Assembly (NCBI GenBank): GCA_036517795.1
Contig: DATDTF010000024.1
Location: forward strand, 1-54,712
Source of the DNA: Minisyncoccota bacterium
Lineage (GTDB): Bacteria > Patescibacteriota > Minisyncoccia > 2-02-FULL-40-12 > IGHO2-12-FULL-4
Direction: 5' to 3'
DNA: 54,712 nt
The notes beneath the pieces are model-generated. The model worked only from the letters and a program-made list of their open reading frames with translations, was not told where the DNA came from and ran no database searches. The position numbers were made by a program, and so were the translations under genes. Shown piece after piece: positions 17,540-53,586 of this stretch; within the stretch, counting starts at the first letter, position 1; every line of letters starts with the position of its first letter.

Positions 17540-18732
17540 AGATACTGTATTTAGCCAACTTAAGACTGCCTACGGAAAAAGCCTATGGCATCCAGATCGC
17601 TAAAATGTGCGAAGCGTTTTCTGACAGCGTACAAGAAGTAAAGTTATTCTATCCTCGTCGTGAAAATCCAGCCGTAAACCAGGATATATTTTCCTATTAT
17701 TCAGTAAAAAATAACTTTACGGTTCAAGTAGTTGAATCTAAAGATTTTTATCTTCCCGGTTTTTTAGACAAAATATCTTTTCTTATTAAAAACTATTTTT
17801 CAGCCAAAGTGTTGGTGGGCGAAGCGTTAAAAGAAGAAAACGTAGATGTTTATTATACTCGCGATGAACGGGTGGCTAAACTTTTGAGCAAGAAAAATAA
17901 AAAAGTTATTTTTGAATGTCACAGATTCTCAAATAAGAGAAAAAGATTTTATTCTTACTTCAAAAAGAAAAATTTAAAAATAGTCGCTATTTCCGGGGGT
18001 TTAAGGGAGGATTTGGTAAAATTCGGTATCAAAGATTCTAATATTAGGGTTGCACACGATGGCGTTGATTTGAAAGAATTTGATTTTCAGGAAACTGAAG
18101 ACGAGGCAAGATTAAGATTATTTAAAAACTTACACCACAATTCTTTTCTTCAAAAAAAGATAGCCGTTTATGTGGGCCAACTTTATCCATGGAAAGTGGG
18201 AGATATTTTTCGGAAAATGGCTAAGCATCTTTGTGAAAAAAATGTAAATTATCTCATATTTATTTTTGGTGGTACGGGCAAGAAAGACCCAGTTACGCTA
18301 AAAAAAGATATAGAAAATATCCTAGAAAAAACACATCCAAACATGGTACCTGTTATATCTTTGGGCTTATTTCCTCATCAGGACGTCCCTCATATTTTGA
18401 GGGCTGCTAACTGCGCGATCTTGATAGGCAATGAGTCAGATGCGACTTCAAAAAAATACACATCACCTCTGAAAATGTTTGAATATATGGCTTCCGGTTG
18501 TCCGATTGTGGCTCAAAACTTACCTTCTTTCAGAGAAGTTCTAAATGATAAAAACTCTTTTTTGGTGGAGCCTGGCAATGCAAAGGCCTTAGCTGACCAA
18601 ATAGCTCTGGTCTTTGATGAGAAGAACGAGCAGATCGCTAAAGACAAAGCCAGCCAAGCCCTAAAGGATGTTCAAGAATATACTTGGCAAAAGAGAGCCG
18701 AAAAAATAATAAGCTTTATAAATGAAGAATAA
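17536..18732 (+). CDS. GT-B glycosyltransferase (GT4/GT1-like)
   Basis: TSPLKMFEYMASGCPIVAQNLPSFREVLNDKNSFLVEP; ATGA overlap. Confidence 0.7.
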   Translation: MKILYLANLRLPTEKAYGIQIAKMCEAFSDSVQEVKLFYPRRENPAVNQDIFSYYSVKNNFTVQVVESKDFYLPGFLDKISFLIKNYFSAKVLVGEALKEENVDVYYTRDERVAKLLSKKNKKVIFECHRFSNKRKRFYSYFKKKNLKIVAISGGLREDLVKFGIKDSNIRVAHDGVDLKEFDFQETEDEARLRLFKNLHHNSFLQKKIAVYVGQLYPWKVGDIFRKMAKHLCEKNVNYLIFIFGGTGKKDPVTLKKDIENILEKTHPNMVPVISLGLFPHQDVPHILRAANCAILIGNESDATSKKYTSPLKMFEYMASGCPIVAQNLPSFREVLNDKNSFLVEPGNAKALADQIALVFDEKNEQIAKDKASQALKDVQEYTWQKRAEKIISFINEE

Positions 18733-19183
18733 AAGGCCGTTTTCAACGGAAGAGTTTAAAAAGATATACTCAAAGACACCTCGTTTATGTGTGGACCTGA
18801 TTATAAATACACCAAAGGGCATAGTCCTTTCTTTAAGGAGCATTGAGCCGTATAAGGGAGAGTGGCACTTCCCCGGAGGAACTGTTTTTTATAAGGAAAA
18901 GATTGTTGACGCGATAGACCGAGTGGCTTTGGAAGAGGTGGGCATAACCGTCAGAGTGGAAAAATTGCTCGGCTATATTGAGTATCCCAGTGAAGACAGA
19001 AAAGGAAGAGGATTTGGATATACAGTTTCTATGGCCTTTTTATGTTCTGCCGGCAGTATGGACTTTATTCCCAGCGAAGAGTCTTCAGAAATTAGAGTTT
19101 TTAGAAATCTGCCGGCCAAACTCATTAAAGAACAAAATGATTTTCTGAAGAAAGTCGGTCTAAAATTAAACCCCCTGATTTAG
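18722..19183 (+). CDS. Nudix hydrolase (nucleotide-sugar hydrolase-like, GDP-mannose mannosyl hydrolase type)
   Basis: Nudix box GEWHFPGGTVFYKEKIVDAIDRVALEEVGI; 153 aa. Confidence 0.7.
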   Translation: MKNKRPFSTEEFKKIYSKTPRLCVDLIINTPKGIVLSLRSIEPYKGEWHFPGGTVFYKEKIVDAIDRVALEEVGITVRVEKLLGYIEYPSEDRKGRGFGYTVSMAFLCSAGSMDFIPSEESSEIRVFRNLPAKLIKEQNDFLKKVGLKLNPLI

Positions 19184-19197
19184 GGGGTTTGTTTTTT
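19168..19197. terminator. Bidirectional intrinsic terminator shared by convergent, 4-bp-overlapping genes
   Basis: AAACCCCCT-gattt-AGGGGGTTT followed by GTTTTTT; the reverse direction is also T-rich. Both stop codons (TAG 19181-19183, TAA complement of 19180-19182) sit in the loop/stem. Confidence 0.75.
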
Positions 19198-20232
19198 ATG
19201 CCACTCAATAAGACGTTTTAGGCCAGACTCAAGAAGTACTTTGTTTTCATGTCCCAGTTCTTTAATTTTTTGAATATCGGGAGTTGCGCTGGTTGGAGTA
19301 GTGGCTGAATAGGGAATATTTACATTTGGAGTAATTTTTATCTCACTACGGCTTCCGGTTATTCTAACGATAAGTTTTGCTAAATTTTCTATACTTATTT
19401 CTTCTTCCGAACCGACATTATATGCCTGGCCCGGTTTTCCGAAAAGTAATACTCGCCACATGGCTTCTATGGAGTCAGATATGTAGGCAAAAGTTCTTGT
19501 TGATGGTGTGTTGGTTACTTCTATATTTTCTTCCAGTATGGCTCGCCGTATGAATTCAGAGATAACTCGACCGTCAGCAAGCGATAGGCGAGGTCCAAAG
19601 GTGTGGAACAAACGAGCAATGGACACATTGATTCCGCGCGCTTTGCAGTAAAGTGAGCATAAGGTCTCGGCAAACCTTTTTGCTTCTTCATAGGCGGCTC
19701 TCGGTCCGATGGGGTCAACCCTGCCTATATATGTTTCTGGGACCGGAGAAACGTCTGGGTTGCCGTATATCTCGCTGGAGCTGATAAATAAAAATCTTAC
19801 AACCCCTCTTTGAAGACAATACTCAAGCAGCTTTTTTGTTCCGAGAACGTTTGCGTCTGCTGTTTCAACCAACTTATTAAGATAATCTTTGGGAGACGCT
19901 TTTGAGGCGCCGTGAACTATGATGTCAATCTGATCGGGCAAGGATGTTTCAGCGACGTCACCGACCAGAAACTCCAATCCGGGTGTATTTAGGCAATGGC
20001 TAAGCCGGCTGTTCTCGGAGATGTCATGATGGGTGAGCACAATTAACTTGGCAGGATTTTTCTTGAGCAGCGTTTCGTTTAAAACTAGAACCGTGTCAAC
20101 AAAGTAAGAAGGAATAAATCCGTTAGCGCCGGTTACAAGTATCGTTTTTCCGGATAAATGTTTAAACCATGACCCCACAGACTTAATGATAGAACAGACG
20201 TCTTCTTGAATGGTTATATCTGTCAGAGTCAT
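19180..20232 (-). CDS. NAD-dependent nucleotide-sugar epimerase/dehydratase/reductase (extended SDR)
   Basis: ILVTGANGFIPSY, ISSSEIYG, YEEAKRFAE (YxxxK) and ARLFHTFGP. GAGGAG lies 8 nt upstream, and the start overlaps the upstream stop as TGATG. Confidence 0.75.
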   Translation of the reverse strand: MTLTDITIQEDVCSIIKSVGSWFKHLSGKTILVTGANGFIPSYFVDTVLVLNETLLKKNPAKLIVLTHHDISENSRLSHCLNTPGLEFLVGDVAETSLPDQIDIIVHGASKASPKDYLNKLVETADANVLGTKKLLEYCLQRGVVRFLFISSSEIYGNPDVSPVPETYIGRVDPIGPRAAYEEAKRFAETLCSLYCKARGINVSIARLFHTFGPRLSLADGRVISEFIRRAILEENIEVTNTPSTRTFAYISDSIEAMWRVLLFGKPGQAYNVGSEEEISIENLAKLIVRITGSRSEIKITPNVNIPYSATTPTSATPDIQKIKELGHENKVLLESGLKRLIEWHKKQTP

Positions 20233-22064
20233 CAGTTGATCTCCTCTGGTTTCTCACTGCCATCTTCTTCAGAAAGCGGGCGGATAATCATATTAGAGAG
20301 GAATTCATCTCTTGGCAGTAAAGGAGTCATATCTTCAATTGGTTTGCTTATGTATTTACCATCCTGTGTTCTGATGGCTATGAGCTTTGGTATCAGCTTT
20401 TGGGCTTCGTTTAACTTTACATTGCAAATGAAAGGTCCTTTTGCGCTCAAAATTTTATCAAGTTTCTCGTCAATTTCTTCATGACTTGCGATTTCTTCAG
20501 TGGCAATGCCGTAGGCCCAGGCCACCTTCTTAAAATCGGGGGCAGTATATCCGGTTTGACTGACCGTTGCCTCATACCGAGCGCCAAAATATATTTCCTG
20601 GAATTGTTTGATGATGCCGTAGGCATTGTTGTTAAACACAAATACTTTAATGGGCAATCCATAATTTTTTAACGTTTGAAGTTCTTGGATAGTTAACTGG
20701 AATCCGCCATCGCCGACCAGGCAGATAACATTTGTTTTCGGGTTAGCAGATGCTGCGCCAATTGCCGCTGGTAGAGCATAACCCATTGGCGCATGACCAA
20801 AGGAAGTAACTACGCGCTGTCCGCTTTCAACTTTTAGGCTTTGAATTGCCCATGCTGAAATTCCGCCGTTATCAATGGTAATAATCGAATTTTTTGAAAG
20901 CTTTTTTGAGAGTTTTTCTGTGAAGACGTAGGGATTAACTGAATCCATTTGATTATTGTATTCCGGAAGAACGGCCGGATATCTTTCTTTCCATTTCAGA
21001 CACGTTGAGTGCCAATCCGAGAAATCAGGTAAAGCCACGCTTGTGCTTATGACTGAATTCAGTTCAGTCAAGAAATATTTAACATCGGCGTGGACGGGAA
21101 TATCGGCTACAACCCAATTCTTTTTCAATTCAGCTTCGCTTATGTCCACCACTATTTTAAAAGCTTCTCTGGCGAATGTTTGAGGCTGTCCGCCTGTTTG
21201 TCGGGTGTCTAGGCGCGAGCCCAAGGACAGCAAAAGGTCGGAGTTCTGGACGGTGAAGTTGGCCGCTCTGTTTCCATAAACACCGATTTGGCCGATGTAT
21301 AGGGGAAAATCATAGGGAAGAATGTCGATTCCGCTCCACGAAGAAACGACGGGAATTTTTAGTGCACCCAGGAGTCGGAGAAGCTCGTTCTCGGCTTGGC
21401 CTAATTTTATACCCGCACCGGCAATAATTACCGGCCGTTTTGCCTTGTGAATCCTGTCTAAGATTTGTGTCGTCAAATAGGTTGGAAAAGGCGTGACTTC
21501 GGGTTCCAATTCTGTGGGATCAAAATCTTCAAGTTCTTCAGGATTGATTTCCGCATGTTGTACGTTCATTGGTATATCAAGCCAAACAGGACCTTGCCGT
21601 CCGGATTTTGCGATATGGATGGCTTTATCAAGATAGTATTTAATTTTGCCAGGATCTTTTACAAGAACCGCAAATTTAGTGATTGGACGGATAATGTCAA
21701 TGATGTCGGTTTCCTGAAATCCCAGCTGACGTATTTTTTTATCACCCTTAGTTTCCCACAGATTAACCTGGCCGGTGATCATAAGGGTGGGGATTGAGTC
21801 AAAGTAAGAACAGCAGACTCCAGTTATGAGATTTGTTGCTCCGGGACCGGAAGTTGCGACAGCAACTCCTATGTTTTTGGTTATCCTGGCGTAAGCATCG
21901 GCTGCCATAGCTGCCGCCTGTTCATGTTGCATACAGACATATTTGATGTCAGGATTTTTACCAAGTGAATCTACGATGTGAGCGCAGGCCCCGCCGGTTA
22001 AAAGAAAAACTTTTTTGATCCCTCTATCAACTAAGTACTGAACTAAGTAGTCAGAAAGTTTCAT
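20232..22064 (-). CDS. Thiamine-diphosphate-dependent enzyme of the acetolactate synthase large-subunit family, YerE-like by context
   Basis: ThDP motif GDGGFQLTIQELQTLKNYGLPIKVFVFNNN and N-terminal ATSGPGATNL. ATG 22064 (MKLSDYL, preceded by GAGGTG) is preferred over track 22097, which lies upstream of the predicted transcription start. Confidence 0.75.
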   Translation of the reverse strand: MKLSDYLVQYLVDRGIKKVFLLTGGACAHIVDSLGKNPDIKYVCMQHEQAAAMAADAYARITKNIGVAVATSGPGATNLITGVCCSYFDSIPTLMITGQVNLWETKGDKKIRQLGFQETDIIDIIRPITKFAVLVKDPGKIKYYLDKAIHIAKSGRQGPVWLDIPMNVQHAEINPEELEDFDPTELEPEVTPFPTYLTTQILDRIHKAKRPVIIAGAGIKLGQAENELLRLLGALKIPVVSSWSGIDILPYDFPLYIGQIGVYGNRAANFTVQNSDLLLSLGSRLDTRQTGGQPQTFAREAFKIVVDISEAELKKNWVVADIPVHADVKYFLTELNSVISTSVALPDFSDWHSTCLKWKERYPAVLPEYNNQMDSVNPYVFTEKLSKKLSKNSIITIDNGGISAWAIQSLKVESGQRVVTSFGHAPMGYALPAAIGAASANPKTNVICLVGDGGFQLTIQELQTLKNYGLPIKVFVFNNNAYGIIKQFQEIYFGARYEATVSQTGYTAPDFKKVAWAYGIATEEIASHEEIDEKLDKILSAKGPFICNVKLNEAQKLIPKLIAIRTQDGKYISKPIEDMTPLLPRDEFLSNMIIRPLSEEDGSEKPEEIN

Positions 22065-22099
22065 TTTCACCTCTTTCCTTATTGTCAAAGAATACATTG

Positions 22100-22128
22100 T
22101 TTATAATAAAGTTTTTACTGTGTGTCAA
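22100..22128 (-). promoter_or_regulatory. Sigma70-type promoter for the ThDP-enzyme/SDR operon (TTGACA-N17-TATAAA)
   Basis: Minus-strand TTGACA = 22128-22123; TATAAA = 22105-22100. Confidence 0.55.
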
Positions 22129-22130
22129 TA

Positions 22131-22159
22131 TTGTATTTTGATAAAAATGTAGCTATGTT
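22131..22159 (+). promoter_or_regulatory. Possible divergent promoter for the 3-dehydratase gene (TTGTAT-N17-TATGTT)
   Basis: Only a moderate match. GGAG at 22181-22184 precedes the TTG start at 22191. Confidence 0.3.
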
Positions 22160-22190
22160 GTGCCCAGCATGTTGACAAAAGGAGTGTTAA

Positions 22191-23408
22191 TTGGAAAACC
22201 AGCCCTTTGTTCCAGGCAAAGATTGGGTTTTTTACAGTCGTGCCGTTTATGGCAAGGAGGAGACAGAATCGGTTCTTGAGTCGCTAAACAGCGATTGGCT
22301 TGGTATCGGCAAGTACAGCCGTGCTTTTGAGGAAAAAGTTACTGATTTGTTTGGCCAAAAGTTTGGCAGGTTTGTCAACTCTGGTTCATCGGCCAACTGG
22401 ATTGGTTTGAAAGCTTTAAATCTGCCGATAGGCGGAGAAGTTATTACTCCGGCCTGTACATTCTCAACCACCGTTAATCCGATTATAGAATTCGGATTGG
22501 TCCCGGTTTTTGTTGATGTAGAACAGGATACTTATAATGTAGATCTTGACCTGGTTGAACAAGCCGTCGGTCCTAAAACGGTGGCCCTAATGATACCCCA
22601 CCTTTTGGGCAATTTGAATGATATGAAGCGGTTGCGTGAGATTGCCGATAAACATGGTCTGAAATTGATTGAAGACAGTTGCGATACCATAGGCGGCAGG
22701 ATAAGGGGCGAACCAACCGGTAAATATGCCGATGTCAGCACTACCAGTTTCTATGCCTCTCACATCATTACGGCGATGGGTGGTGGAGGGATGGTAATGT
22801 TCAAAGAACGGTCCCGTGCGGAACTAGCCCAGATACTAAGGGACTGGGGTAGGGCGTCAATGGAATATTATGACGAACGTCCGGATGTCCGATTTGATTT
22901 TTATTTGGACGATGTCCGATACGACAAAAAGTTTGTTTTTCGTGAAAGAGGCTTTAATTTTAAGGCATTAGATGCGCAGGCGGCTTTTGGAATGGTACAA
23001 CTTTCCCGTCTTGAAGAATTTCATCAGGTTCGCCGAAAAAATTTTACGACACTGTACGAATTTTTTGAAAGATTTCCTGAACACTTTATGTTGCCGCGGC
23101 AAGCGACGGCCGATACTGATGTCCGTTGGCTAGCTTTCCCGATAACTGTCCATGAAGCGTCGCCTATTTACCGCACCGACCTCATGCTTCATCTGGAAAA
23201 GCATAAGATACAAACAAGAGTTCTTTTCGCCGGAAATATTCTGCGCCACCCACCTTATCGGAACATTTCTCATCGTGTTGTCGGGGAACTGACAAACTCC
23301 AATAAGATATTGGCCCAGAGTTTGCTCATTGGTTGCCATCACGGGTTGCGTCAGGAGCATCTGGATTATGTAATGCGGATCATTGAAGAGTATCTGGAAA
23401 AAGTTTAA
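22191..23408 (+). CDS. PLP/PMP-dependent nucleotide-sugar 3-dehydratase of the DegT family (RfbH/DdhC/E1-ColD type)
   Basis: Strong resemblance to RfbH as recalled: TFSTTVNPIIEFGLVPVFVDV, YRNISHRVVGELTNSNKI, LIGCHHGLRQEHLDYV. The usual Schiff-base Lys is His (SFYASHIIT). The E1 iron-sulfur cysteine motif after DWGR is absent. TTG start with SD. Confidence 0.75.
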   Translation: MENQPFVPGKDWVFYSRAVYGKEETESVLESLNSDWLGIGKYSRAFEEKVTDLFGQKFGRFVNSGSSANWIGLKALNLPIGGEVITPACTFSTTVNPIIEFGLVPVFVDVEQDTYNVDLDLVEQAVGPKTVALMIPHLLGNLNDMKRLREIADKHGLKLIEDSCDTIGGRIRGEPTGKYADVSTTSFYASHIITAMGGGGMVMFKERSRAELAQILRDWGRASMEYYDERPDVRFDFYLDDVRYDKKFVFRERGFNFKALDAQAAFGMVQLSRLEEFHQVRRKNFTTLYEFFERFPEHFMLPRQATADTDVRWLAFPITVHEASPIYRTDLMLHLEKHKIQTRVLFAGNILRHPPYRNISHRVVGELTNSNKILAQSLLIGCHHGLRQEHLDYVMRIIEEYLEKV

Positions 23409-23456: not shown

Positions 23457-24404
23457 ATGGGAATCCAAAAAAATATAAATAGTCTTAAGCTTGAACTATT
23501 TCTTATCTTCAGGCTTTTTCAGGAGGGTTATGGTCCAAAGTATTGGTGGCCGTATGCTAAAAATAAGTTCCTTGGAAATTATCTGTTCCGCTACCTTCCA
23601 CGCTACGAATATATTGCCGATCCGGATTTGGAATTGCACATCGTCTGTTCTTCTAAGCATCTTTGGATGCTGGCCTGGATGCTGCACTCGTTTTTTGCTC
23701 AATCAGGGTTGAAGCCGAATATCGTCATACATGAAGATGGTACTATGGATAAGGCCACAGCCAAACTGATTCAAAGTAAGTTTGCCAATGTTATGGTTAT
23801 GTTTAGAGATGAAACGACTAAGCGGATTCTGGCAATGCCTGACATTCCGGAAATTATTAAAAAAGCCAGAGTCAGCTCACATTTTTTTCTAGATAGATTG
23901 AGTAATTTGGCAATTTTCAGCAAGGCCAAGAGAATTCTTCTTAGTGATGTGGACATTTTGTATTTCAAGCCGCCCATAGAGGTAATTGATTTTATGACTG
24001 GAAAAACTGATTTAGACGCTTTGGGGCAGCAATCGTTGGAATCAAGTGAGCCATATGACCTGAAGATGGATGATTACTACGTTAAGAAGTATAAGCTTGA
24101 TGAGAAGAGGCTTTACCTGATGAATGGCGGCTACCTTATGTTGGACAGGCAAAAGTTAAATGTAAGCCAGATCGTTGAATATCTGGAGCATGTACAAATG
24201 CCATTCACGGATTATTTTATTGAGATGAGTGGGTGGGCATGCGTATTGGCCCAGCTCAATTTTAAATATTTGTCCCCGCACAAATATGCGATTAAAGGTC
24301 GGCTCAATGACACCATGATAATGAAACATTTTACCAGTCCGCGCAGATATGAAATGTTTGCCTATGGCATAGATAAAGCCCGGGAAAATATTGATAAAAT
24401 TTGA
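23457..24404 (+). CDS. Hypothetical protein, possible GT-A-like nucleotide-sugar transferase
   Basis: 315 aa. The only recognisable motif is ILLSDVDILYFKPP (DXD-like); no confident family assignment. Confidence 0.35.
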   Translation: MGIQKNINSLKLELFLIFRLFQEGYGPKYWWPYAKNKFLGNYLFRYLPRYEYIADPDLELHIVCSSKHLWMLAWMLHSFFAQSGLKPNIVIHEDGTMDKATAKLIQSKFANVMVMFRDETTKRILAMPDIPEIIKKARVSSHFFLDRLSNLAIFSKAKRILLSDVDILYFKPPIEVIDFMTGKTDLDALGQQSLESSEPYDLKMDDYYVKKYKLDEKRLYLMNGGYLMLDRQKLNVSQIVEYLEHVQMPFTDYFIEMSGWACVLAQLNFKYLSPHKYAIKGRLNDTMIMKHFTSPRRYEMFAYGIDKARENIDKI

Positions 24405-24470: not shown

Positions 24471-25529
24471 ATGGCGCTAGATTTAAAGCGAGTTTTTAAA
24501 AATAAGACAGTTTTGGTCACTGGTGGAACCGGTTCTTTTGGTGGAGAAGTTGTCAAGAGACTGCTAAGCTATAATCCCAAAAAGGTGGTGGTTTTTAGCC
24601 GTGATGAGAAAAAACAGTTTGACATGAATAATAAGTTCAATGACCACCGTTTAAAGTTTGTTCTTGGAGATGTTCGTGACAGACAATCGGTTGAGCATGC
24701 CATGCACGGAGTAGATATGGTTTTTCATGCAGCTGCATTGAAGCAAGTTCCCAACTGTGAATTTTTTCCAATTCAGGCAATACAAACCAATATTCACGGT
24801 TCGTTTAATGTCATCAACGCTGCCATCGATGGTGGTGTGAAAAACTTGGTTTTATTAAGTACCGATAAAGCCGTCTATCCAGTAAACGTGATGGGTATGT
24901 CAAAGGCGTTGGCTGAAAGAATCATGATTGCTTCCTTTCGTCAAGACAGGGGCAGTACGACTTTGTCAGGCACTCGTTATGGGAATGTAATATATACCCG
25001 CGGATCGGTAATCCCATTTTTTATTAGTCAAATGAAAGCGAAACAACCCCTCTCGGTGACCAACAAAGACATGACCCGATTCATGATGTCTCTTAATGAT
25101 TCGGTGAATTTGGTTCTCTACGCTCTTGTCAATGGCAAAAATGGGGAAATTTATGTGCGCAAATCTCCTGCAGCTACGGTAGGCGATACCGCCCAAGCTT
25201 TAGTGGAGTTGTTCAAATATAAAAATAAAATCGTGGATATAGGAATTAGACCGGGAGAGAAGATGCATGAAACACTCATCTCGTTAGAAGAATTTAGGCG
25301 GACTAGGGATATGGGTGACTACTATAAGATTTCACCTGAACTACCAAAAATTGATTCAAGAGAGTACTTTTTTAAAGGCGAAAATAGATCAACCAACATG
25401 CCGGTCGAAGGATATACTTCTGCCAATACCACCAGGTTAACGGTTAAAGGGGTTAAGAAACTTTTATTGTCTCTGCCAGAAATCAAAAAGGAGCTTAGTC
25501 TTCTTCGGGAGGGTAATTTTTATAAATAA
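24471..25529 (+). CDS. UDP-N-acetylglucosamine 4,6-dehydratase/5-epimerase, CapE/FnlA/WbjB/WbvB type
   Basis: VTGGTGSFG, SRDEKKQ, AAALKQVPNCEF, STDKAVYPVNVMGMSKAL (the Met-x3-Lys variant typical of CapE), RYGNV..RGSVIP, MTRFMM and MGDYYKI. Confidence 0.8.
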   Translation: MALDLKRVFKNKTVLVTGGTGSFGGEVVKRLLSYNPKKVVVFSRDEKKQFDMNNKFNDHRLKFVLGDVRDRQSVEHAMHGVDMVFHAAALKQVPNCEFFPIQAIQTNIHGSFNVINAAIDGGVKNLVLLSTDKAVYPVNVMGMSKALAERIMIASFRQDRGSTTLSGTRYGNVIYTRGSVIPFFISQMKAKQPLSVTNKDMTRFMMSLNDSVNLVLYALVNGKNGEIYVRKSPAATVGDTAQALVELFKYKNKIVDIGIRPGEKMHETLISLEEFRRTRDMGDYYKISPELPKIDSREYFFKGENRSTNMPVEGYTSANTTRLTVKGVKKLLLSLPEIKKELSLLREGNFYK

Positions 25530-25531
25530 TC

Positions 25532-26431
25532 ATGGAGGCTCAGGTAATAATTACAGGTGCAAGTGGGCTTTTAGGCTCCCAACTTGTGCAAACGTTTAAA
25601 AATCAAGGCCACGAAGTGTTGGCTGTTTTTAATCGAAAACCAGGGTCGATTGTTTCAGGCACAAATAAGATCCGATGTGACGTTTCCATTAAAAAGGACA
25701 CCTTCTCTTTAAAAGAGCATATTAAATGTCCATCTTTGATTGTGCATTGCGCGGCTATCACCAATGTTGATCTATGCGAAAAAGATAAAGAATTATGCAA
25801 GGCGACAAATATTGAGGGTACAAAGAACATTTGCGAACTTGCTCGTCAAACAAAGTCAAGGCTTATCTATGTTTCCACTTCTTCTGTTTTTGATGGCAAA
25901 AAGGGAAATTATAAAGAGTTAGACAAAACAAATCCCATAAATTACTATAATTTTTCTAAAGTTCAAGGGGAAAATCATGTACTTGAATATGAAAAAGGGC
26001 TAGTTGTCAGAACAATTCCTCTCGGCTTGCATTCTGCGGGACGAAAACCTACAAGTTTCTTGGAATGGCTTGTCGATTCTTTTAAAAAGAACCTAAATGT
26101 CAACCTTTTTACTGATGTTAGGATAAATCCGCTAACGACAACTACTCTATCTGCGATAATCGCTAATATTTCGCCTTTACTTGACGTGGGAATAATTCAC
26201 CTAGGCAGTCGGGATGTAGTTTCGAAAGCCAGCATAGGCTTAGAGGTTAAAAAACTTTTTCCTTTATATTCGGGCAATCTCAACCTAACCAGTATAGACG
26301 ATAATAACCAAGTAGCTGAACGGCCTAAAGAAATGTGGCTAAATGTAGATAGGGCGCTGTTGTTGGGTCTTGATCTTCCCGAAGCCCTATCAGATATAGG
26401 CGCATACTTAAATGGAAAAAAGTTACTATAA
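25532..26431 (+). CDS. RmlD-like NAD(P)H-dependent 4-ketoreductase (WbvR-like by context)
   Basis: ITGASGLLGSQL and INYYNFSKVQGE (YxxxK); 299 aa with no cupin domain, so not CapF-type. Confidence 0.6.
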   Translation: MEAQVIITGASGLLGSQLVQTFKNQGHEVLAVFNRKPGSIVSGTNKIRCDVSIKKDTFSLKEHIKCPSLIVHCAAITNVDLCEKDKELCKATNIEGTKNICELARQTKSRLIYVSTSSVFDGKKGNYKELDKTNPINYYNFSKVQGENHVLEYEKGLVVRTIPLGLHSAGRKPTSFLEWLVDSFKKNLNVNLFTDVRINPLTTTTLSAIIANISPLLDVGIIHLGSRDVVSKASIGLEVKKLFPLYSGNLNLTSIDDNNQVAERPKEMWLNVDRALLLGLDLPEALSDIGAYLNGKKLL

Positions 26432-27155
26432 AAACTATTTTGTTCTGGAAAAAACCCATTGGCTGTTTAAAATAAGAAGAAAGATATTTTTTTATTTTAT
26501 ACAAAAATATTCTAAACCCGGCTCCAAGATATTTGATTTTGGCTGTGGGTCGGGGTATTTGGTGGGAGAGCTTCAGAAGATGGGCCATGATGCTCATGGC
26601 ATGGATTTTGAAAAGGAGGCAATAGATTATGGTACTAATTCCGGAATTAAAAACTTAACTCTGGGGAAGGGAGATAAGCTTGAGTATGCCAATAAAAACT
26701 TTGACTTACTGACGGCATTTGACGTTCTGGAACACATTGAAAATGAAAAGCCGGTTATTGAGGAGCTTGTCAGAATTTTGAAACCGGGCGGCAAAATGAT
26801 AATTTCTGTTCCGGCATACCAATGGCTTTGGGGAGTGCAGGATGAAGTTTCTCACCACTTTAGACGATATACGGCAGGGTCGCTGTTGAAAATTTTTAAA
26901 GAATTTCTGGAATTAAGACCTGTTAGGATAACCTATTTTAACAGCTTGCTTTTTTTGCCCATTGCTGTTGTCCGGTTGTTCAGCAGATTGTTTAAGGTTA
27001 AGAACAGGAAGTCCGATTTTGATGTTAAGACCGGTTTTTTGGATGTATTTTTTTATCATATCTTTAACCTGGAATCATATTTTTTAAAATTTATTAACTT
27101 TCCATTTGGAGTTTCTATTCTTCTAATTCTAGAAAAAAATGCGGACAATTCTTAA
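26412..27155 (+). CDS. Class I SAM-dependent methyltransferase
   Basis: Motif I IFDFGCGSGYL, then LKPGGKMIISVP. Confidence 0.75.
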   Translation: MEKSYYKNYFVLEKTHWLFKIRRKIFFYFIQKYSKPGSKIFDFGCGSGYLVGELQKMGHDAHGMDFEKEAIDYGTNSGIKNLTLGKGDKLEYANKNFDLLTAFDVLEHIENEKPVIEELVRILKPGGKMIISVPAYQWLWGVQDEVSHHFRRYTAGSLLKIFKEFLELRPVRITYFNSLLFLPIAVVRLFSRLFKVKNRKSDFDVKTGFLDVFFYHIFNLESYFLKFINFPFGVSILLILEKNADNS

Positions 27156-28803
27156 AGACAACGTGTTGCTCTTTGTTCTGATTGGATCTTTTATTTTAAT
27201 TAGATTTCTCGGTTTAGATCAGTTTTATCACCAAGATGAATATCGGTGGGTAGATATTGCTGATAGTATCGCTAACTCAAGTTTGGGGTTGGCGTCTCCG
27301 CATCCGCCATTGATGCAGGGTTTGTTTTATGTTTTTTCTGTATTTGAGAAAATATTTAACTATAACAATCTAAGACTTATCCCGCTTTTGTTTAGTGTTT
27401 TATGTTTTGTTTTGGTTTACCGGATCTCACTAAGATATGACAAAAATCGCAAGATGGCCTATGTTGCAATCGGCCTTTTTACATTAAATGTTTATAGTTC
27501 AATAGCCAGCCTCCAGCTTGATATTGATGGCGCAATATTGCCTTTTTTTGTTCTGTTGTCTTATTACTTCTATCTGCGATCGGTGATTGACGGGGACAAA
27601 AGATTTATTTTACCTTTTCTTGTGGCAATCGCCGGCGGGTTTCTGGCCAAATTAAGTTTTACCCTGTTTGTAGGAGCCTTAGCGGCTGATTATTTTTGGA
27701 CAGTGTATGAGAGAGGGGAGTTTAAGGCCGGTATCAAAAAGTTTTTTTATTTATTCGGAGGCCTAGTTTTATCCGCCGGTGCTTTTTATGTCTTCTACGG
27801 TTCCGGTCACCCGTGGTTTGTTGAATACACGTTAAACCATCTGCAGACAGCCAGGAGTTTTGGGTCAAGGTCTTATTTTGACCTCTTTCTCCGTCTTTTC
27901 AAATTTTTTATCTGGTTGTCGCCACTTTTAACCTTACCGGTTGTATATGGGATATTCAAAAAGGAGATATTTAGTAAGTATAGGATTTGGTATGTTTATA
28001 TATTTTTTAATCTCCTTTTCTATCTTGTTGTTTTTAATTTTTCCACGCTTCCGATTGAGAGGTATCTGATGAGTCTTATAATTCCAGCAGTCTTTATCAG
28101 TTCCGATGTTATTTGTTCGTTCATAAAAAAACTTAAAATAAACAGAAGTTTTTTGTTTTTAAGTATTGCCGGCTTTGTTCTGCTCGCGACGATTACAGTT
28201 CTGATGAACAGTGAGGTTATGCCTCTTAATCCCAAAGAAGCGTATGTAGACAAACTAAAATCTTTAGATTTTAATTTCCTAATTCCTTTGACCGGCGGTT
28301 CGGGGCCGATAGGATTTTATGTTTCTGCCCAATTTATACTCTGGGCGTGGGTAATTTGTGCGATTGGACTAACCTTGAATAAAAAATCTTGGGCTGTGTA
28401 TTTGTTTGTTATATTCGGTTTCGGATATAACACCCTTCTTTCAAATGAATTTTTGTTCGGCAATTTATACGGCAGTGTAGATAAAATAACAAAAAAATCA
28501 GTTGAGTACGTGATTAATAATCAGGAAATTGACGGAGTGATAACTTATTATGATGCGGGGGTTTATTATCTGAAGAAAGCGGATAAATACGATTCAAGAT
28601 TTTATACCGCTCCTAAGCGCGACTACACTCCCAAGATGACCAGTTACCGCGGCCATTATATGATTGTTGACTTTCCGGCAATAGACAAAGAAAGCCGGTA
28701 CTGGAAATTAATATCAAGATGCGAGTTAGACAAAAAGTTCACAGATAAATATCTAGATTCTTATATTTTTGACTGCCGAGGCTTACCTCAAAACCAATTG
28801 TAG
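27139..28803 (+). CDS. GT-C membrane glycosyltransferase (ArnT/FlmK/LgmB-like)
   Basis: 554 aa, polytopic, with N-proximal YHQDEYRWVDIA DE motif. Confidence 0.65.
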   Translation: MRTILKDNVLLFVLIGSFILIRFLGLDQFYHQDEYRWVDIADSIANSSLGLASPHPPLMQGLFYVFSVFEKIFNYNNLRLIPLLFSVLCFVLVYRISLRYDKNRKMAYVAIGLFTLNVYSSIASLQLDIDGAILPFFVLLSYYFYLRSVIDGDKRFILPFLVAIAGGFLAKLSFTLFVGALAADYFWTVYERGEFKAGIKKFFYLFGGLVLSAGAFYVFYGSGHPWFVEYTLNHLQTARSFGSRSYFDLFLRLFKFFIWLSPLLTLPVVYGIFKKEIFSKYRIWYVYIFFNLLFYLVVFNFSTLPIERYLMSLIIPAVFISSDVICSFIKKLKINRSFLFLSIAGFVLLATITVLMNSEVMPLNPKEAYVDKLKSLDFNFLIPLTGGSGPIGFYVSAQFILWAWVICAIGLTLNKKSWAVYLFVIFGFGYNTLLSNEFLFGNLYGSVDKITKKSVEYVINNQEIDGVITYYDAGVYYLKKADKYDSRFYTAPKRDYTPKMTSYRGHYMIVDFPAIDKESRYWKLISRCELDKKFTDKYLDSYIFDCRGLPQNQL

Positions 28804-28821
28804 TTAAAGGCTTGGTTCAGA

Positions 28822-28850
28822 TGGACAGATCATTTAAACTTTGATATAAT
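28822..28850 (+). promoter_or_regulatory. Near-consensus promoter TGGACA-N17-(TG)a-TATAAT, only 6 nt upstream of ATG 28857
   Basis: -35 at 28822-28827, extended-10 TG at 28842-28843, TATAAT at 28845-28850. No SD between the -10 and the ATG. Confidence 0.65.
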
Positions 28851-28856
28851 TTTGCA

Positions 28857-29801
28857 ATGCAAAATAGTCAAAAACCTCTTTTTTTGTCGGTAGTTTTACC
28901 TATTTTTAATGAAGAGGAGTCCCTTGCTGAATTAATGGGGGAGCTTTATTCGGTCTGTAACTCTTTGAATAAAGAGTATGAAATAATTTTTGTTGATGAT
29001 AATTCTAGCGACAGAACACCCGAAATCCTCAAGCAGTATGCGGACAAGGATCCAAGGGTCAAAGTTATACGTTTTTCCAGAAATTTCAGACACCAGGCGG
29101 CTATAAGCGCCGGTCTGGATGCCTCAAGCGGGGAAATGGTTGTGACCATGGACAGCGATCTTCAGCATCCTCCGAAAGTAATTCTTGAATTCATAAAACA
29201 GGCTGAAAGCGGATATGACATAGTGATTGCGGAAAGAACGGCCAACGAGCACAATTCTTTTTTAAGGGAAGCAATAGGTAAAGCTATATATAAATTCCTA
29301 AGCCTTTCCACTGGTCTTGAATTTAAAAATGCAGGAGATTTCGTATTATACAAAAGAAAGGTTGTAGAGGTCATTAAAAATTTACCCGAGAGAGAAAAGT
29401 TCTTCAGGGGACTTGTTCAATGGATAGGTTTTAATAAAAAATACGTTTCTTATTCGGTAAGAGCCCGTAAGCATGGCAAGCCGACTTCCGTTAGAGGTTT
29501 GGCTCGTTTTATTTTGAACGGAATAACTTCTTTTTCCGCCTTTCCTCTGCGCCTTTCGTTTTGGCTTGGTGCAATAATCTTTGTGTTTAGTGTCGGCTAC
29601 GGCTTAGAAGTTGTGGTGGAGCATTTTTTGTACCCCAACTCTTTTATTAACGGCTTTACAGCGTTGGTTATCGTTGTTCTTGCTTTGGGCAGTATCCAGC
29701 TGATGGTAATCGGTGTTATTGGGGAATATCTTTATAAAATGTTTAATGAGATAAAGGGTCGTCCGGTGTATATTATAGCTGAAAAAAAGAATTTGGATTA
29801 A
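28857..29801 (+). CDS. GT2 polyprenyl-phosphate glycosyltransferase (ArnC/GtrB/FlmF2/LgmA-like)
   Basis: LSVVLPIFNEE, VDDNSSDRT, RFSRNFRHQAAISAGLD and DSDLQHPP, plus two C-terminal TM helices. Confidence 0.8.
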   Translation: MQNSQKPLFLSVVLPIFNEEESLAELMGELYSVCNSLNKEYEIIFVDDNSSDRTPEILKQYADKDPRVKVIRFSRNFRHQAAISAGLDASSGEMVVTMDSDLQHPPKVILEFIKQAESGYDIVIAERTANEHNSFLREAIGKAIYKFLSLSTGLEFKNAGDFVLYKRKVVEVIKNLPEREKFFRGLVQWIGFNKKYVSYSVRARKHGKPTSVRGLARFILNGITSFSAFPLRLSFWLGAIIFVFSVGYGLEVVVEHFLYPNSFINGFTALVIVVLALGSIQLMVIGVIGEYLYKMFNEIKGRPVYIIAEKKNLD

Positions 29802-29813
29802 GTTTATATTCTA

Positions 29814-30572
29814 ATGTTGAGAACTATTGCTGATGATCTTGGTCTCCATAAATCCGTTAATAGCGGTATTGTTTTTTTGTTGAGAGAGGGCAAGATAGAC
29901 GGGGCATCGTTAATGGCTAACGGAGAAGAGTTTGAAGATGCGGTCCGGCAATGTTTGGAAAATAAACTTTCAAATGTCGGTGTTCATTTAAATTTGGTTG
30001 AACAGCAGTCAGTTTTATCGGGTAAACCGATGTTAAAAAATCATCGAGTTTTTTTTATAAAATATATTCTAGGTTTAGTAAAAAAGGAAATTCTCCGGAA
30101 AGAACTGGAAGCGCAAGTTAAAAAAATTGTTCAGGCCGGGATAAAGCCTATTTTTTTGAACGGAAACCAACACCTCCATCTTTTGCCGGGAATTATGGAT
30201 ATTACTATAAGACTGGCGAAAGAATATCAAATACCTTATATAAGAATAATAAACGAACCGGCATCTCTTAAAAAAGGAAGTTTGTTCAGGGAACTACAGT
30301 TGGTTTTTTTGAATTTTCTGTCAAAATCGGCTAAAAGAAAAATTAAAAAAGCCGGTCTTGAGTGCAATGACTATTTTGTAGGATTTATTGACGCCGGTGT
30401 TATGAGCTTTAAAACTAAACAAGAAGCCGAGGTGTTGGCTGAAAAATATCCCGACAAGGTCATTGAGCTCGGCTGTCATCCTGGGTATGAAAGCGAGAGC
30501 CTAAGAAAAAAATTCAAACACTGGGGGAATTACAATTGGGAGGAAGAGCTAAACTTACTAAGACAACAATGA
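29814..30572 (+). CDS. YdjC/ChbG-family carbohydrate deacetylase (NaxD/LgmC-like by context)
   Basis: N-terminal DDLGLHKSVNSGI and NGNQHLHLLPG, typical of the YdjC family. Confidence 0.7.
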   Translation: MLRTIADDLGLHKSVNSGIVFLLREGKIDGASLMANGEEFEDAVRQCLENKLSNVGVHLNLVEQQSVLSGKPMLKNHRVFFIKYILGLVKKEILRKELEAQVKKIVQAGIKPIFLNGNQHLHLLPGIMDITIRLAKEYQIPYIRIINEPASLKKGSLFRELQLVFLNFLSKSAKRKIKKAGLECNDYFVGFIDAGVMSFKTKQEAEVLAEKYPDKVIELGCHPGYESESLRKKFKHWGNYNWEEELNLLRQQ

Positions 30573-31609
30573 GAATTTTATATTTGAGCAGATCAAAAAT
30601 GAACCACTCGGTTAACGCAGTCTATATCAAGGGATTAAGACTGAACGGGGCTGATGTTAAAGAGGTTTTTGTCCGCCATGATGAATTTTTTGAGCTTATT
30701 AAATATTTGGTCAGCAACCGAAAGACCTTTGATTCCGTTTTTGTCGGCTACGATAGCCCACAGCTTGTAATTTTATCAAAGCTTTTTTCAAGAAAAAAAG
30801 TTACCTACAATGCCCTCTGTTCTGTTTATGAAAGGTTGATTGTTTCAAGAGCGTTTGCGCCGCCCTACTCAGTAAAGGCGCTTTATTACTGGTTTTTGGA
30901 TTTTCTTTCTTTTAACTTGGCTGATTTGACAATGGTTGAGACCGACAGCCAAGCTGACTATTGCGCGAAATTTTTTCTAGCCCCAAGGAAAAAATTTTTC
31001 AGAGCTTGGACGGGAGTTGATGAGGAAAAATTTTATTTCAATCCGGACATAGATAAGTTTTCCAGATTCACGGTCATTTTCAGGGGGCAGTTTCTGCCCG
31101 AGTCGGGGGTTGAGTATGCGATTAAAGCGGCTAAAATTTTAGAAAATGAGGATATAAATTTTATTATTCATGGCGGCGGTTTTAATGCCGATAAAATCAA
31201 AAAGTTGGTGGAAGATTTAAAACCAAAAAATCTTAGGATGATAACGGACTTTTTGCCGGCAGAAGAATTAAGAACGCTTATGCAGAAGTGCCACTTAAGC
31301 TTGGGACAGTTGTCAGACCACCCGCGTCTTGAAAGAACGGTTCCCCATAAGGCATTCGAGTCACTGGCGATGAAACTGCCCTATCTGACCGTTTCCAACA
31401 AAGGTGTTCTTGAATTGTTAAAGACGGGAGAAGTTTGTGTTTCTTGCGAGTTGGCCAGTGCTGAATCTTTGGCTAAAAAAATACTGTGGTCAAAAGGTCA
31501 TCCCCAAGAGTTGGAACGGACAGCCGAGAATGGTTACTTGCTATATAAGGACAAGCTTAATTCCCTTGTTTTGGCCAAAAAACTGCTTGCCCACATAAAT
31601 TTATTATGA
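30569..31609 (+). CDS. GT-B fold glycosyltransferase, paralog of 14309-15364
   Basis: VIFRGQFLPESGVEYAIKAAKIL and TVPHKAFESLAMKLPYLT. ATG 30569 forms an ATGA overlap with the upstream stop and is preferred over track TTG 30536. Confidence 0.6.
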   Translation: MRILYLSRSKMNHSVNAVYIKGLRLNGADVKEVFVRHDEFFELIKYLVSNRKTFDSVFVGYDSPQLVILSKLFSRKKVTYNALCSVYERLIVSRAFAPPYSVKALYYWFLDFLSFNLADLTMVETDSQADYCAKFFLAPRKKFFRAWTGVDEEKFYFNPDIDKFSRFTVIFRGQFLPESGVEYAIKAAKILENEDINFIIHGGGFNADKIKKLVEDLKPKNLRMITDFLPAEELRTLMQKCHLSLGQLSDHPRLERTVPHKAFESLAMKLPYLTVSNKGVLELLKTGEVCVSCELASAESLAKKILWSKGHPQELERTAENGYLLYKDKLNSLVLAKKLLAHINLL

Positions 31610-53553: not shown

Positions 53554-53586
53554 CAAAAAAACACCGCTTTTAAATTTAAACGGTGT
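53554..53586 (-). terminator. Intrinsic terminator of the 53576-54592 gene
   Basis: Minus-strand ACACCGTTT-aaattta-AAA(G)CGGTGT followed by TTTTTTT; the stop codon is inside the stem. Confidence 0.7.

Follow-up and report, generated by a model that had tools for sequence, protein, structure and literature searches.

An uncultivated, ultra-small CPR/Patescibacteria bacterium appears to carry a known set of genes for a rare cell-surface sugar, 3-deoxygenated and carbon-branched. On balance we lean towards a scheme in which an E1-type dehydratase, a YerE-like ThDP enzyme and an SDR together make a yersiniose-like branched sugar. The key dehydratase is a member of a large, unstudied branch of its family that lacks the iron-sulfur centre needed by the textbook relative. 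The genes lie in a window of 54,712 nucleotides (the whole stretch analysed) from an assembly of 574 kb that is 76.7% complete, and we propose that they are part of a cell-surface glycan locus of at least 45 kb. The ORFs for the Nudix protein, the SDR, the ThDP enzyme and the DegT protein lie where a sequence-only reading of this DNA had placed them, and every peptide that it quoted was found in the translations; its observation as a whole was confirmed, and its interpretation as a whole supported. The features are as follows.

18722-19183, + strand: Nudix hydrolase, the conserved neighbour of the dehydratase gene (PF00293, 41.5 bits)
19180-20232, - strand: extended SDR, UDP-glucuronate-decarboxylase (UXS)-like (human UXS1, 185 bits)
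20232-22097, - strand: YerE-like ThDP-dependent carboligase, 621 aa, with a GDG motif (three TPP_enzyme domains, Pfam)
22191-23408, + strand: predicted Cys-less, E1/RfbH-like, PMP-dependent NDP-4-keto-6-deoxyhexose 3-dehydratase, 405 aa, TTG start (Pfam DegT, 302 bits)
23457-24404, + strand: conserved partner of 315 aa outside any Pfam family, DVD motif, probable GT-A (GT8-like) glycosyltransferase (synteny, fold matches)
24471-25529, + strand: FnlA/PseB-like UDP-GlcNAc 4,6-dehydratase (FnlA model 395 bits, PseB 334 bits, both below cut-off)
25532-26431, + strand: RmlD-like 4-ketoreductase (RmlD_sub_bind, 151 bits)
26412-31609, + strand: conserved downstream block of a class I methyltransferase, a 554-aa membrane protein, an ArnC/PgfS-like polyprenyl-phosphate glycosyltransferase, a YdjC-like deacetylase and a GT4
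53576-54592, in the window: Fcl-like gene

An E1-like dehydratase without the iron-sulfur ligands

The assignment of the DegT protein to the RfbH/E1-like enzymes stands, since it matches Yersinia E1 (3bcx) over its full length with 313 bits and ColD with 150 bits; the RfbH model scores 395.5 bits on it, below the cut-off of 423. In the HMMER alignment, SFYASHIIT of the query pairs with SFYPAHHIT of E1, which puts the query His on E1 His220, the residue that is Lys in entry 3bb8 (H220K). The His had thus been correctly located at the position of the Schiff-base Lys. The loss of the Fe-S cysteine cluster after DWGR was likewise real: this segment contains no cysteine, and the four E1 Cys positions correspond to Ser, a gap, Tyr and Pro.

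The 120 homologues nearest to it, the most distant at 49% identity, are all Cys-less and carry the His. Of the 150 best-ranking cluster representatives (50% identity), 97 were classifiable, and about half of these (45) have fewer than three cysteines in the Fe-S segment. Judged by these alignments, the cysteine loss is not a one-off event. Some Cys-less members are naturally fused to RmlC, to RmlD-like or to extended SDR domains (GDP_Man_Dehyd/Epimerase type; 4,6-dehydratase-like), which suggests that this clade acts on NDP-4-keto-6-deoxyhexoses; a reductase or ferredoxin domain was present in none of the 10 fusions examined.

The DVRFD/DVRYD repeat reported in this segment does exist at the DNA level, as the direct repeat GATGTCCGAT at 22884-22893 (the start had been given as 22883) and 22911-22920, the two copies being in frame with an offset of 27 bases. 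The idea that it is a module replacing the cluster did not survive the homologue and E1 alignments: most homologues have D[IV]RF...[IV]QYD at these positions, and in the E1 alignment the RF and YD residues fall on KRF and GYDHKY. By a rough estimate, chance alone would give about 0.5 in-frame 10-mer repeats of this kind, spaced within 30 bases, per 55 kb window, and the repeat is probably not a meaningful duplication.

The absence of an E3 reductase gene, noted before for this DNA, was borne out for the window and for the 574 kb assembly, searched with PF00175, PF00111 and tblastn using E3 from L141; FNR and Fer2 homologues were not found in the 76.7% complete genome either. A nearby E3 is, however, missing from most canonical loci too, so that its absence does not discriminate, and two CPR genomes with a Cys-bearing E1 (G300 and G224) likewise have none nearby, so the missing gene proves little. 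Because the protein clusters with E1 and not with ColD, ColD-type turnover has to be argued from the missing cluster ligands together with the missing reductase, and we infer it on that basis.

The ThDP enzyme is YerE-like and travels with the SDR gene

The ThDP enzyme had been read as YerE-like, and three lines of evidence agree. Its best structure matches are JanthE (8rph, 396 bits) and PpYerE (5ahk, 371 bits), with AHAS enzymes at 276 bits or less. It falls below every NCBIfam ALS cut-off, the top model by score being the ALS large subunit (453.7 bits against a cut-off of 538). In the tree, it lies apart from a clade of 16 rows without any E1 neighbour, the probable AHAS clade, and on a side rich in loci with an E1 neighbour gene. 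No grouping with IlvB/IlvG was seen, and neither ilvC nor ilvN was found in the genome. Going by these comparisons, the protein is a YerE-like enzyme and not an acetolactate synthase.

In a set of 300 genomes from this class, an E1-like gene occurs in 25 and a YerE-like gene in 11; 6 CPR genomes, each from a different family, have both within a distance of 4 kb. About 34 loci across bacterial phyla have the pair within 10 kb; outside CPR, nearly all of these use a Cys-bearing E1. The order ThDP then SDR recurs in G028, G198, L051 and many non-CPR loci, and here the SDR start overlaps the ThDP stop. The closest relative, L049, has a dehydratase that is 73% identical and no ThDP enzyme or SDR cassette, so the two functions are separable; with L049 as reference, the ThDP-SDR pair is a two-gene insertion in inverted orientation, flanked by the Nudix and dehydratase genes. 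Another relative has a split transketolase in their place. The ThDP and SDR genes are an accessory two-gene cassette.

Neighbouring genes

The Nudix gene directly adjoins the E1-like gene in L049 (62% identity) and L051 (55%). The Nudix domain is present as claimed, whereas its description as the nucleotide-sugar type is weakly based: the GDP-mannose mannosyl hydrolase model, whose cut-off is 146 bits, gave 38, and the solved enzyme about 30 bits. The 315-aa partner lies 3' of the E1-like gene in L048-L051 (52-80% identity) and upstream in L053 (39%). Its AF2 model is poor (pLDDT 52), the best folds are glycogenin and LgtC (E 4e-3), and a weak Atlas lead points to GT8; it is probably a GT-A (GT8-like) glycosyltransferase on these models. 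Synteny between the E1-like gene and the block at 26412-31609, whose membrane protein has a weak LA_3751-like match, extends to L049, L050 and L051.

Proposed pathway and alternatives

The comparisons above establish the protein families, the active-site residues, the cysteine loss and the conserved gene context, and from these we infer the chemistry, donor, nucleotide carrier and product. The DegT protein would be a pyridoxamine-phosphate-dependent sugar 3-dehydratase: an NDP-4-keto-6-deoxyhexose would be bound as a Schiff base through its C4 keto group, and the active-site His would drive out the C3 hydroxyl. Most likely the reaction would finish as in ColD, by hydrolysis of the enamine to a 3,6-dideoxy-4-keto sugar and ammonia, and an amino acid donor would recharge the cofactor. 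The YerE-like enzyme would decarboxylate a 2-keto acid, most simply pyruvate, and attach the resulting acyl anion at the C4 ketone; C4 would then be a tertiary alcohol bearing an acetyl branch, and the carbonyl of that branch would be reduced by the translationally coupled SDR. The product would most likely be a yersiniose-like 3,6-dideoxy-4-C-branched sugar, with a 1-hydroxyethyl branch, passed to the adjoining putative glycosyltransferase. The RmlD-like enzyme, which shares 30% identity (E 3e-30) with the RmlD domain of P0192, a fusion with a Cys-less E1-like protein, may also reduce the 4-keto intermediate directly to an unbranched dideoxy sugar.

The SDR is proposed to be the branch ketoreductase, the role of YerF. 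An SDR does stand beside the ThDP gene, as had been pointed out, but it is not the type usual at the YerF position. It matches human UXS1 with 185 bits (next-best structure, 86 bits) and keeps every UXS catalytic hallmark (SSSE, YxxxK and DGRV, the Ser/Glu, YxxxK and Arg of the decarboxylases), whereas SDRs abutting YerE genes elsewhere are of the SSGAVYG type. This, and the CDP-glucose genes not found in the assembly, speak against the branched-hexose scheme.

Two separate pathways could instead be present, an unlikely arrangement in our estimate. The SDR would decarboxylate an NDP-glucuronate to an NDP-4-keto-pentose that the ThDP enzyme acetylates at C4, giving a eurekanate-type branched pentose, while the dehydratase and the RmlD-like reductase would make an unbranched 3,6-dideoxyhexose. 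Besides the UXS1 match, this would fit the published proposal that the decarboxylase EvdS6 supplies a TPP-dependent branching enzyme, the eurekanate route passing through a 4-keto-pentose (PMC10338323). It would also fit G198, where a UXS-like SDR follows the ThDP gene and there is no E1-like gene, the L049 dehydratase without a ThDP enzyme, and the fusions of Cys-less E1-like proteins to RmlD and RmlC domains, with an RmlD-like gene nearby here. However, the only NDP-sugar dehydrogenase match in the genome is partial (model positions 73-277) and below cut-off (121 against 189.8 bits), which makes a glucuronate supply doubtful on sequence grounds. Among the loci examined, moreover, the nearest kin of the SDR (GANG..SY type) are in the YerE loci L113, L115, L106 and G198, the first three being canonical ddhA/ddhB/E1/YerE loci where glucuronate is not expected, and many lineages keep the E1-type and YerE-like genes in tight linkage.

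The genome does contain sources of 4-keto-6-deoxy sugars, among them the nucleotidyltransferase and 4,6-dehydratase genes that the sequence-only reading had suggested looking for: an RmlA-like gene and RmlB on contig C11, Gmd (above its cut-off) on contig C38, and the FnlA-like gene in the window. No gene of the canonical CDP-glucose route (ddhA, ddhB) was found in the assembly. Rather improbably, then, the branched-sugar pathway might start from UDP-GlcNAc, the FnlA/PseB-like dehydratase giving a UDP-2-acetamido-4-keto-2,6-dideoxyhexose that the 3-dehydratase and the ThDP enzyme would turn into a branched trideoxy sugar with an N-acetyl group. The window has no 4-keto-6-deoxy generator other than the FnlA-like gene, which shares the strand of the dehydratase gene and is two genes away from it; the only nucleotide sugar that a wall-bearing minimal bacterium has to produce is UDP-GlcNAc, and a GlmU-like gene is present in the genome. 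Yet FnlA-like and RmlD-like enzymes are by themselves a known pair for UDP-L-RhaNAc-type sugars, the pair is missing from the corresponding position in L049-L051, where the dehydratase is kept, and related CPR loci place ddhA-like genes and CDP-type (SDK-motif) 4,6-dehydratases beside the E1-type/YerE-like pair.

That the DegT protein is an aminotransferase-like or inactive relative, beside a biosynthetic acetolactate synthase lying in a sugar locus by chance, is highly improbable: SpnQ can transaminate when its reductase is absent (PMC8987622), and an ALS model does score highest on the ThDP enzyme, but the His is conserved clade-wide, and the sub-cut-off ALS score, the missing ilvC and ilvN and the tree position all point the other way.

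Comparison with known systems

The preferred pathway to a branched hexose resembles the yersiniose A scheme, in which a YerE-type enzyme has a 3-dehydratase linked to it and an SDR after it (PMC9306805), as the ThDP gene has here. Among the YerE-like enzymes ErwE, PpYerE and JanthE, ours is closest to the last two. YerE/YerF and ErwE/ErwF act on CDP-4-keto-3,6-dideoxyglucose (PMC9306805, PMC12247030); the present system differs from YerE/YerF in its CPR host, its Fe-S-less partner dehydratase, its UXS-like SDR and in that ddhA and ddhB were not found in the assembly. When compared with the UDP-glucuronate decarboxylases (human UXS1, the ArnA C-terminal domain and EvdS6), the SDR best matches UXS1 and retains its catalytic residues; unlike these enzymes, it has Pro for the third glycine of the NAD motif (GANGFIP), and its ArnA match is only 49 bits.

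With E1 (AscC/DdhC/RfbH), the CDP-6-deoxy-L-threo-D-glycero-4-hexulose 3-dehydrase of Yersinia pseudotuberculosis and its best structural-sequence match, the DegT protein shares the fold, the catalytic His, the DWGR motif and the C-terminal VVGELTN motif. It differs in lacking the [2Fe-2S] Cys ligands, in the shorter length of that segment, in its sub-cut-off RfbH score and in the E3 that was not found, and a well-supported branch (SH-aLRT 99) separates it from the Cys-bearing E1 group. ColD, the GDP-4-keto-6-deoxy-D-mannose 3-dehydratase of E. coli O55 (2gms), whose mechanism has been set against those of E1 and SpnQ (PMC8987622), and the Campylobacter C3-dehydratase orthologues have, as here, His for Lys, no Fe-S centre and no reductase. 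The ColD turnover mode is the one proposed for the DegT protein, and the host has Gmd in its genome and an Fcl-like gene in the window. Similarity to ColD is nevertheless about that to ordinary sugar aminotransferases, so the Fe-S-free state found here would belong to a different lineage of the family.

An E1-related dehydratase without Fe-S ligands

The assembly comprises 574 kb in 46 contigs and is 76.7% complete, and the window is the entire contig C24. Around the dehydratase gene the window carries a long series of glycosyltransferase and sugar-modifying genes, those of interest here being the following:

18722-19183, forward strand: Nudix hydrolase
19180-20232, reverse strand: short-chain dehydrogenase/reductase-type protein (SDR)
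20232-22097, reverse strand: ThDP enzyme, 621 aa
22191-23408, forward strand: DegT-family dehydratase, 405 aa
23457-24404, forward strand: ORF315, 315 aa, without a Pfam family, with a DVD motif and fold matches that are GT8-like but weak
24471-26431: FnlA/PseB-like and RmlD-like genes
26412-31609: conserved block 3' of the dehydratase, with a methyltransferase, a 554-aa membrane protein (ORF554), an ArnC/PgfS-like polyprenyl-phosphate glycosyltransferase, a YdjC-like deacetylase and a GT4

Comparisons with E1, ColD and YerE-like enzymes were made from PDB search scores and printed alignments. In a profile search the dehydratase shows the DegT fold (302 bits to PF01041), and it scores 395.5 bits against the RfbH model NF011936, just below the cut-off of 423. 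Among solved structures it reaches 313 bits with Yersinia E1, and only 150 bits with ColD. The sequence-only reading had placed a His at the Schiff-base Lys position, and the alignment agrees: the His falls on E1 His220, which entry 3bb8 (H220K) replaces by Lys. The proposed loss of the E1 Fe-S Cys cluster after DWGR also held, as the segment contains no Cys and the four E1 Cys positions pair with Ser, a gap, Tyr and Pro. Of the internal DVRFD/DVRYD duplication described in this segment, the 10-base direct repeat is real; as a family feature the duplication was rejected, since the second copy differs in most relatives and the RF and YD residues are also found in E1.

According to a 2022 review, the only characterised 3-dehydratases are E1 and SpnQ, both Fe-S enzymes, and ColD, which has no Fe-S center (PMC8987622). 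E1 and SpnQ depend on a reductase, while ColD works without cluster or reductase (PMC8987622, PMC10440746), and the Campylobacter 3-dehydratases described later are ColD orthologues (PMC10440746). By analogy, we propose that the window dehydratase would turn over as ColD does, regenerating PMP from L-glutamate and releasing ammonia. No E3 (AscD) homologue and no PF00175 or PF00111 (FNR-type, plant-type ferredoxin) domain was found in the 76.7%-complete genome, which is consistent with ColD-like turnover. On its own this is weak evidence, because CPR genomes with a Cys-bearing E1 and most canonical loci also have no nearby E3, E3-like genes being close to E1 in only 4 canonical loci. A control comparing FNR/Fer2 genes between CPR genomes with Cys-bearing E1 and those with Cys-less proteins gave no clean pattern (none in G300; one each in G224 and G023, elsewhere in the genome). 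An ORF of 212-221 aa adjoins the Cys-bearing E1 in two CPR loci (L042:12225-12863, L045:10878-11543), that of L042 having no family match; these ORFs might encode an electron-transfer partner that has gone unrecognised.

The Cys-less dehydratases form a large E1-side group

The His is kept and the Cys are missing in all 120 nearest homologues of the dehydratase, down to 49% identity, the closest of them carrying the source names Yanofskybacteria, Taylorbacteria and Komeilibacteria. A search of 1.84 billion representatives returned a family of 1154 members at E 1e-30 or better. Within the best 150 of these, 97 could be classified (52 with at least 3 Cys, 45 with fewer), and the top scorers were nearly all Cys-less. 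In an unrooted tree the Cys-bearing proteins make up one group, and well-supported branches separate it from the clade of the window protein. Rooting with two DegT aminotransferases was discarded, as it gave long branches and put one outgroup inside the tree, and the Cys-less state is thus called neither ancestral nor derived. We found no description of this Cys-less E1-side group in the literature searched.

Of the Cys-less members, ten fusion proteins were examined. In three the added domain is an extended SDR (GDP_Man_Dehyd/Epimerase type), and further fusions are to an RmlC-type epimerase or an RmlD-type reductase, one protein combining RmlC, RmlD and dehydratase; one extension proved to be an intein, and another matches no Pfam family. 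A redox-partner reductase or ferredoxin domain occurs in none of the ten. The fusions to SDR, RmlC and RmlD place the clade, by prediction, in NDP-4-keto-6-deoxyhexose pathways, where its members would act ahead of epimerisation and 4-reduction. Separately, inteins (Hint plus a LAGLIDADG homing endonuclease) were noted in P0169, P0216 (also P0238 and P0246) and P0124, with Pfam confirmation for P0169, P0216 and P0124; in Cys-bearing E1 homologues they sit exactly at the DWGRDC Fe-S motif, and one further intein lies within a Cys-less homologue.

The ThDP enzyme resembles YerE

The ThDP enzyme has the three ThDP-enzyme domains and the GDG motif, and falls below every acetolactate-synthase cut-off (453.7 bits to TIGR00118, cut-off 538). 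Its best structures are JanthE (8rph, 396 bits), a characterised YerE-like enzyme (PMC12188165), and PpYerE (5ahk, 371 bits), with AHAS structures at 276 bits or less. In a tree of 97 relatives, a clade of 16 entries without any nearby E1 gene, which includes Veillonella, Virgibacillus and Neisseria, probably represents true AHAS; the window protein stands across the split from it (local support 100), on a side where 38 of 74 entries have an E1-type gene within 10 kb. Neither ilvC nor the ALS small subunit gene ilvN had a match in the 76.7%-complete genome. The earlier assignment to YerE rather than to IlvB/IlvG is thereby upheld, and the enzyme is predicted to be a YerE-like carboligase, which would transfer a 2-keto acid-derived unit onto a sugar ketone.

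The ThDP gene is divergent from the dehydratase gene, 93 bases away. In a set of 300 genomes from the same class, the dehydratase occurs in 25 and a YerE-like gene in 11; in 6, from six families, the two genes are no more than 4 kb apart. A neighbourhood survey of 80 loci across bacterial phyla showed the usual set to be ddhA-like and ddhB-like genes, an E1 with 3-4 Cys, a YerE-like gene and an abutting SDR, as in the scheme published for yersiniose and erwiniose (PMC9306805, PMC12247030). Unambiguous pairs of a Cys-less dehydratase with a YerE-like gene are all from CPR: the window, four other genomes (G028, G023, G005, G226) and loci L051 and L078. Three entries leave this undecided, among them L131, with an unreadable motif, and L082, a partial match whose Cys appear in the locus survey yet which was scored as Cys-less in the ThDP tree table. 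In the CPR genomes G300 and G224 the E1 keeps its Cys and is accompanied by ddhA- and ddhB-like genes.

In several loci the YerE-like gene directly adjoins that of a class I (aspartate-type) aminotransferase, whether or not a dehydratase is nearby; this aminotransferase may provide the 2-keto acid donor or serve in glutamate recycling:

L041, 10575-11837: class I aminotransferase beside YerE-like gene
L078, 4602-5861: the same
L073, 10780-11961: the same
L074, 11492-12637: the same
L079, 7861-9033: the same

The SDR has two possible roles

At 20232 the start of the SDR gene overlaps the stop of the ThDP gene, and on the basis of this gene position we favour a role as a YerF-like ketoreductase acting on the branch, as a prediction. 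The rival is a decarboxylase whose 4-keto-pentose product would be passed to the ThDP enzyme, a scheme put forward for eurekanate (PMC10338323). The best structure for the SDR is human UDP-xylose synthase (185 bits, the next structure scoring 86), and in the alignment to 2b69 and the motif table it keeps the full set of UXS catalytic residues (Ser-x-Glu, YxxxK and the gate Arg), all of which speaks for the decarboxylase. However, the source of NDP-glucuronate that such an enzyme would need is doubtful in this genome, where the only candidate is a partial nucleotide-sugar dehydrogenase match (121 bits, cut-off 189.8). The nearest SDR kin among the loci examined share the GANG..SY nucleotide motif and belong to the YerE loci L113, L115 and L106 and to genome G198. 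We also considered whether SDRs at the YerF position are UXS-like in general; those of L086 and L133, compared with solved structures, are not.

The branching genes look exchangeable

Locus L049, whose dehydratase is 73% identical, contains, in this order, Nudix, dehydratase, ORF315, methyltransferase, ORF554, ArnC-like GT2 and YdjC genes, and lacks the ThDP enzyme and the SDR; relative to it, these two genes of the window are inserted in inverted orientation, exactly between the Nudix and dehydratase genes. At this site L050 (70% identical) carries a split transketolase together with an SDR and a PanB-like gene. In L051 (67% identical) the SDR that comes after the YerE-like gene is a different one, and G028 combines YerE-like, SDR and split transketolase genes. 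The branch-forming unit thus looks exchangeable, whereas the dehydratase and ORF315 remain neighbours in 4 of 4 loci (the window, L049, L050 and L051), and methyltransferase and ORF554 follow 3' of them in L049, L050 and L051.

Split transketolases (N and C halves) lie beside a Cys-less dehydratase in two CPR loci (L050:8143-9868, L040:13736-15561); split transketolases proposed for sugar branching have been reported only from Streptomycetes (PMC12247030). Compared with L049-L051, the window has another insertion of two genes, FnlA/PseB-like and RmlD-like, which separates ORF315 from the methyltransferase. The block at 26412-31609 resembles Arn- or Gtr-type lipid-linked glycosylation systems that work outside the membrane.

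Substrate and neighbouring genes

The 76.7%-complete assembly yielded no CDP-glucose genes. It contains Gmd, just above its cut-off, RmlA-like and RmlB genes, and an Fcl-like gene at the end of the window. The FnlA/PseB-like dehydratase and the RmlD-like reductase are encoded directly 3' of ORF315, the latter sharing 30% identity with an RmlD domain that elsewhere is fused to a Cys-less dehydratase. Several nucleotide carriers would be compatible with this content, and sequence alone does not choose among them. In contig C11 of this genome, the RmlA-like and RmlB genes flank an HNH endonuclease-like ORF of 164 aa (L001:2598-3092).

The adjacent Nudix hydrolase had been described as of the nucleotide-sugar type. 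The adjacency is sound, the gene being a conserved neighbour of the dehydratase; the match to the GDP-mannose mannosyl hydrolase family is weak (38 bits, cut-off 146; about 30 bits to 1rya and 2i8t). ORF315 falls in clusters of hypothetical proteins that occur widely among bacterial phyla (Atlas scores 0.97-0.99). Its probable identity is a GT-A glycosyltransferase, a tentative call because the structure model is poor (pLDDT 52) and the GT8 fold matches are weak (E 4e-3).

Implications and comparison with known systems

The observation made from the sequence is confirmed, and the pathway suggested with it, for a 3,6-dideoxy, possibly C-branched hexose, is supported as the best available explanation of these genes. 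The pathway type is already known; what is new is the E1-side Fe-S-free dehydratase lineage, the CPR host, the modular, swappable branching unit and the unusual SDR partner. A wider reading would join these points, and we consider it improbable as a whole: the Cys-less E1-side clade would be a third, independent solution to C3 deoxygenation without Fe-S or reductase, the dehydratase would act on the FnlA-like product, and the window would be a self-contained route from UDP-GlcNAc to a new 2-acetamido-2,3,6-trideoxy-4-C-branched hexose on the CPR cell surface, with a branch module (YerE-like, split transketolase or none) swappable between relatives.

The results point to a large, diverse E1-side group without cluster ligands, predominant among the CPR homologues seen here and with some members joined to the enzymes of the following steps in dideoxy-L-hexose pathways, and raise the question of whether Fe-S-free turnover has arisen twice in the family. 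They also widen the range of the YerE-type branched-sugar cassette to the surfaces of ultra-small bacteria, and perhaps that of branching by split transketolases as well. Ultra-small CPR bacteria live attached to host cells, and to our knowledge almost nothing is known about their glycans. The enzymes may interest users of YerE-like catalysts for tertiary alcohols.

With E1/RfbH the dehydratase shares the DegT/aspartate-aminotransferase fold and the His replacing the Schiff-base Lys, but it differs in having no [2Fe-2S] Cys ligands, a score below the RfbH cut-off and no E3 partner found in the 76.7%-complete genome. With ColD, in contrast, it has in common the Fe-S-free, His-bearing state and not the sequence kinship, which lies with E1. 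The ThDP enzyme scores well above any AHAS to both JanthE and PpYerE. The SDRs at the YerF position of canonical loci, used as a stand-in for YerF, have SSGAVYG and no DGR, whereas that of the window has SSSEIYG and DGRV.
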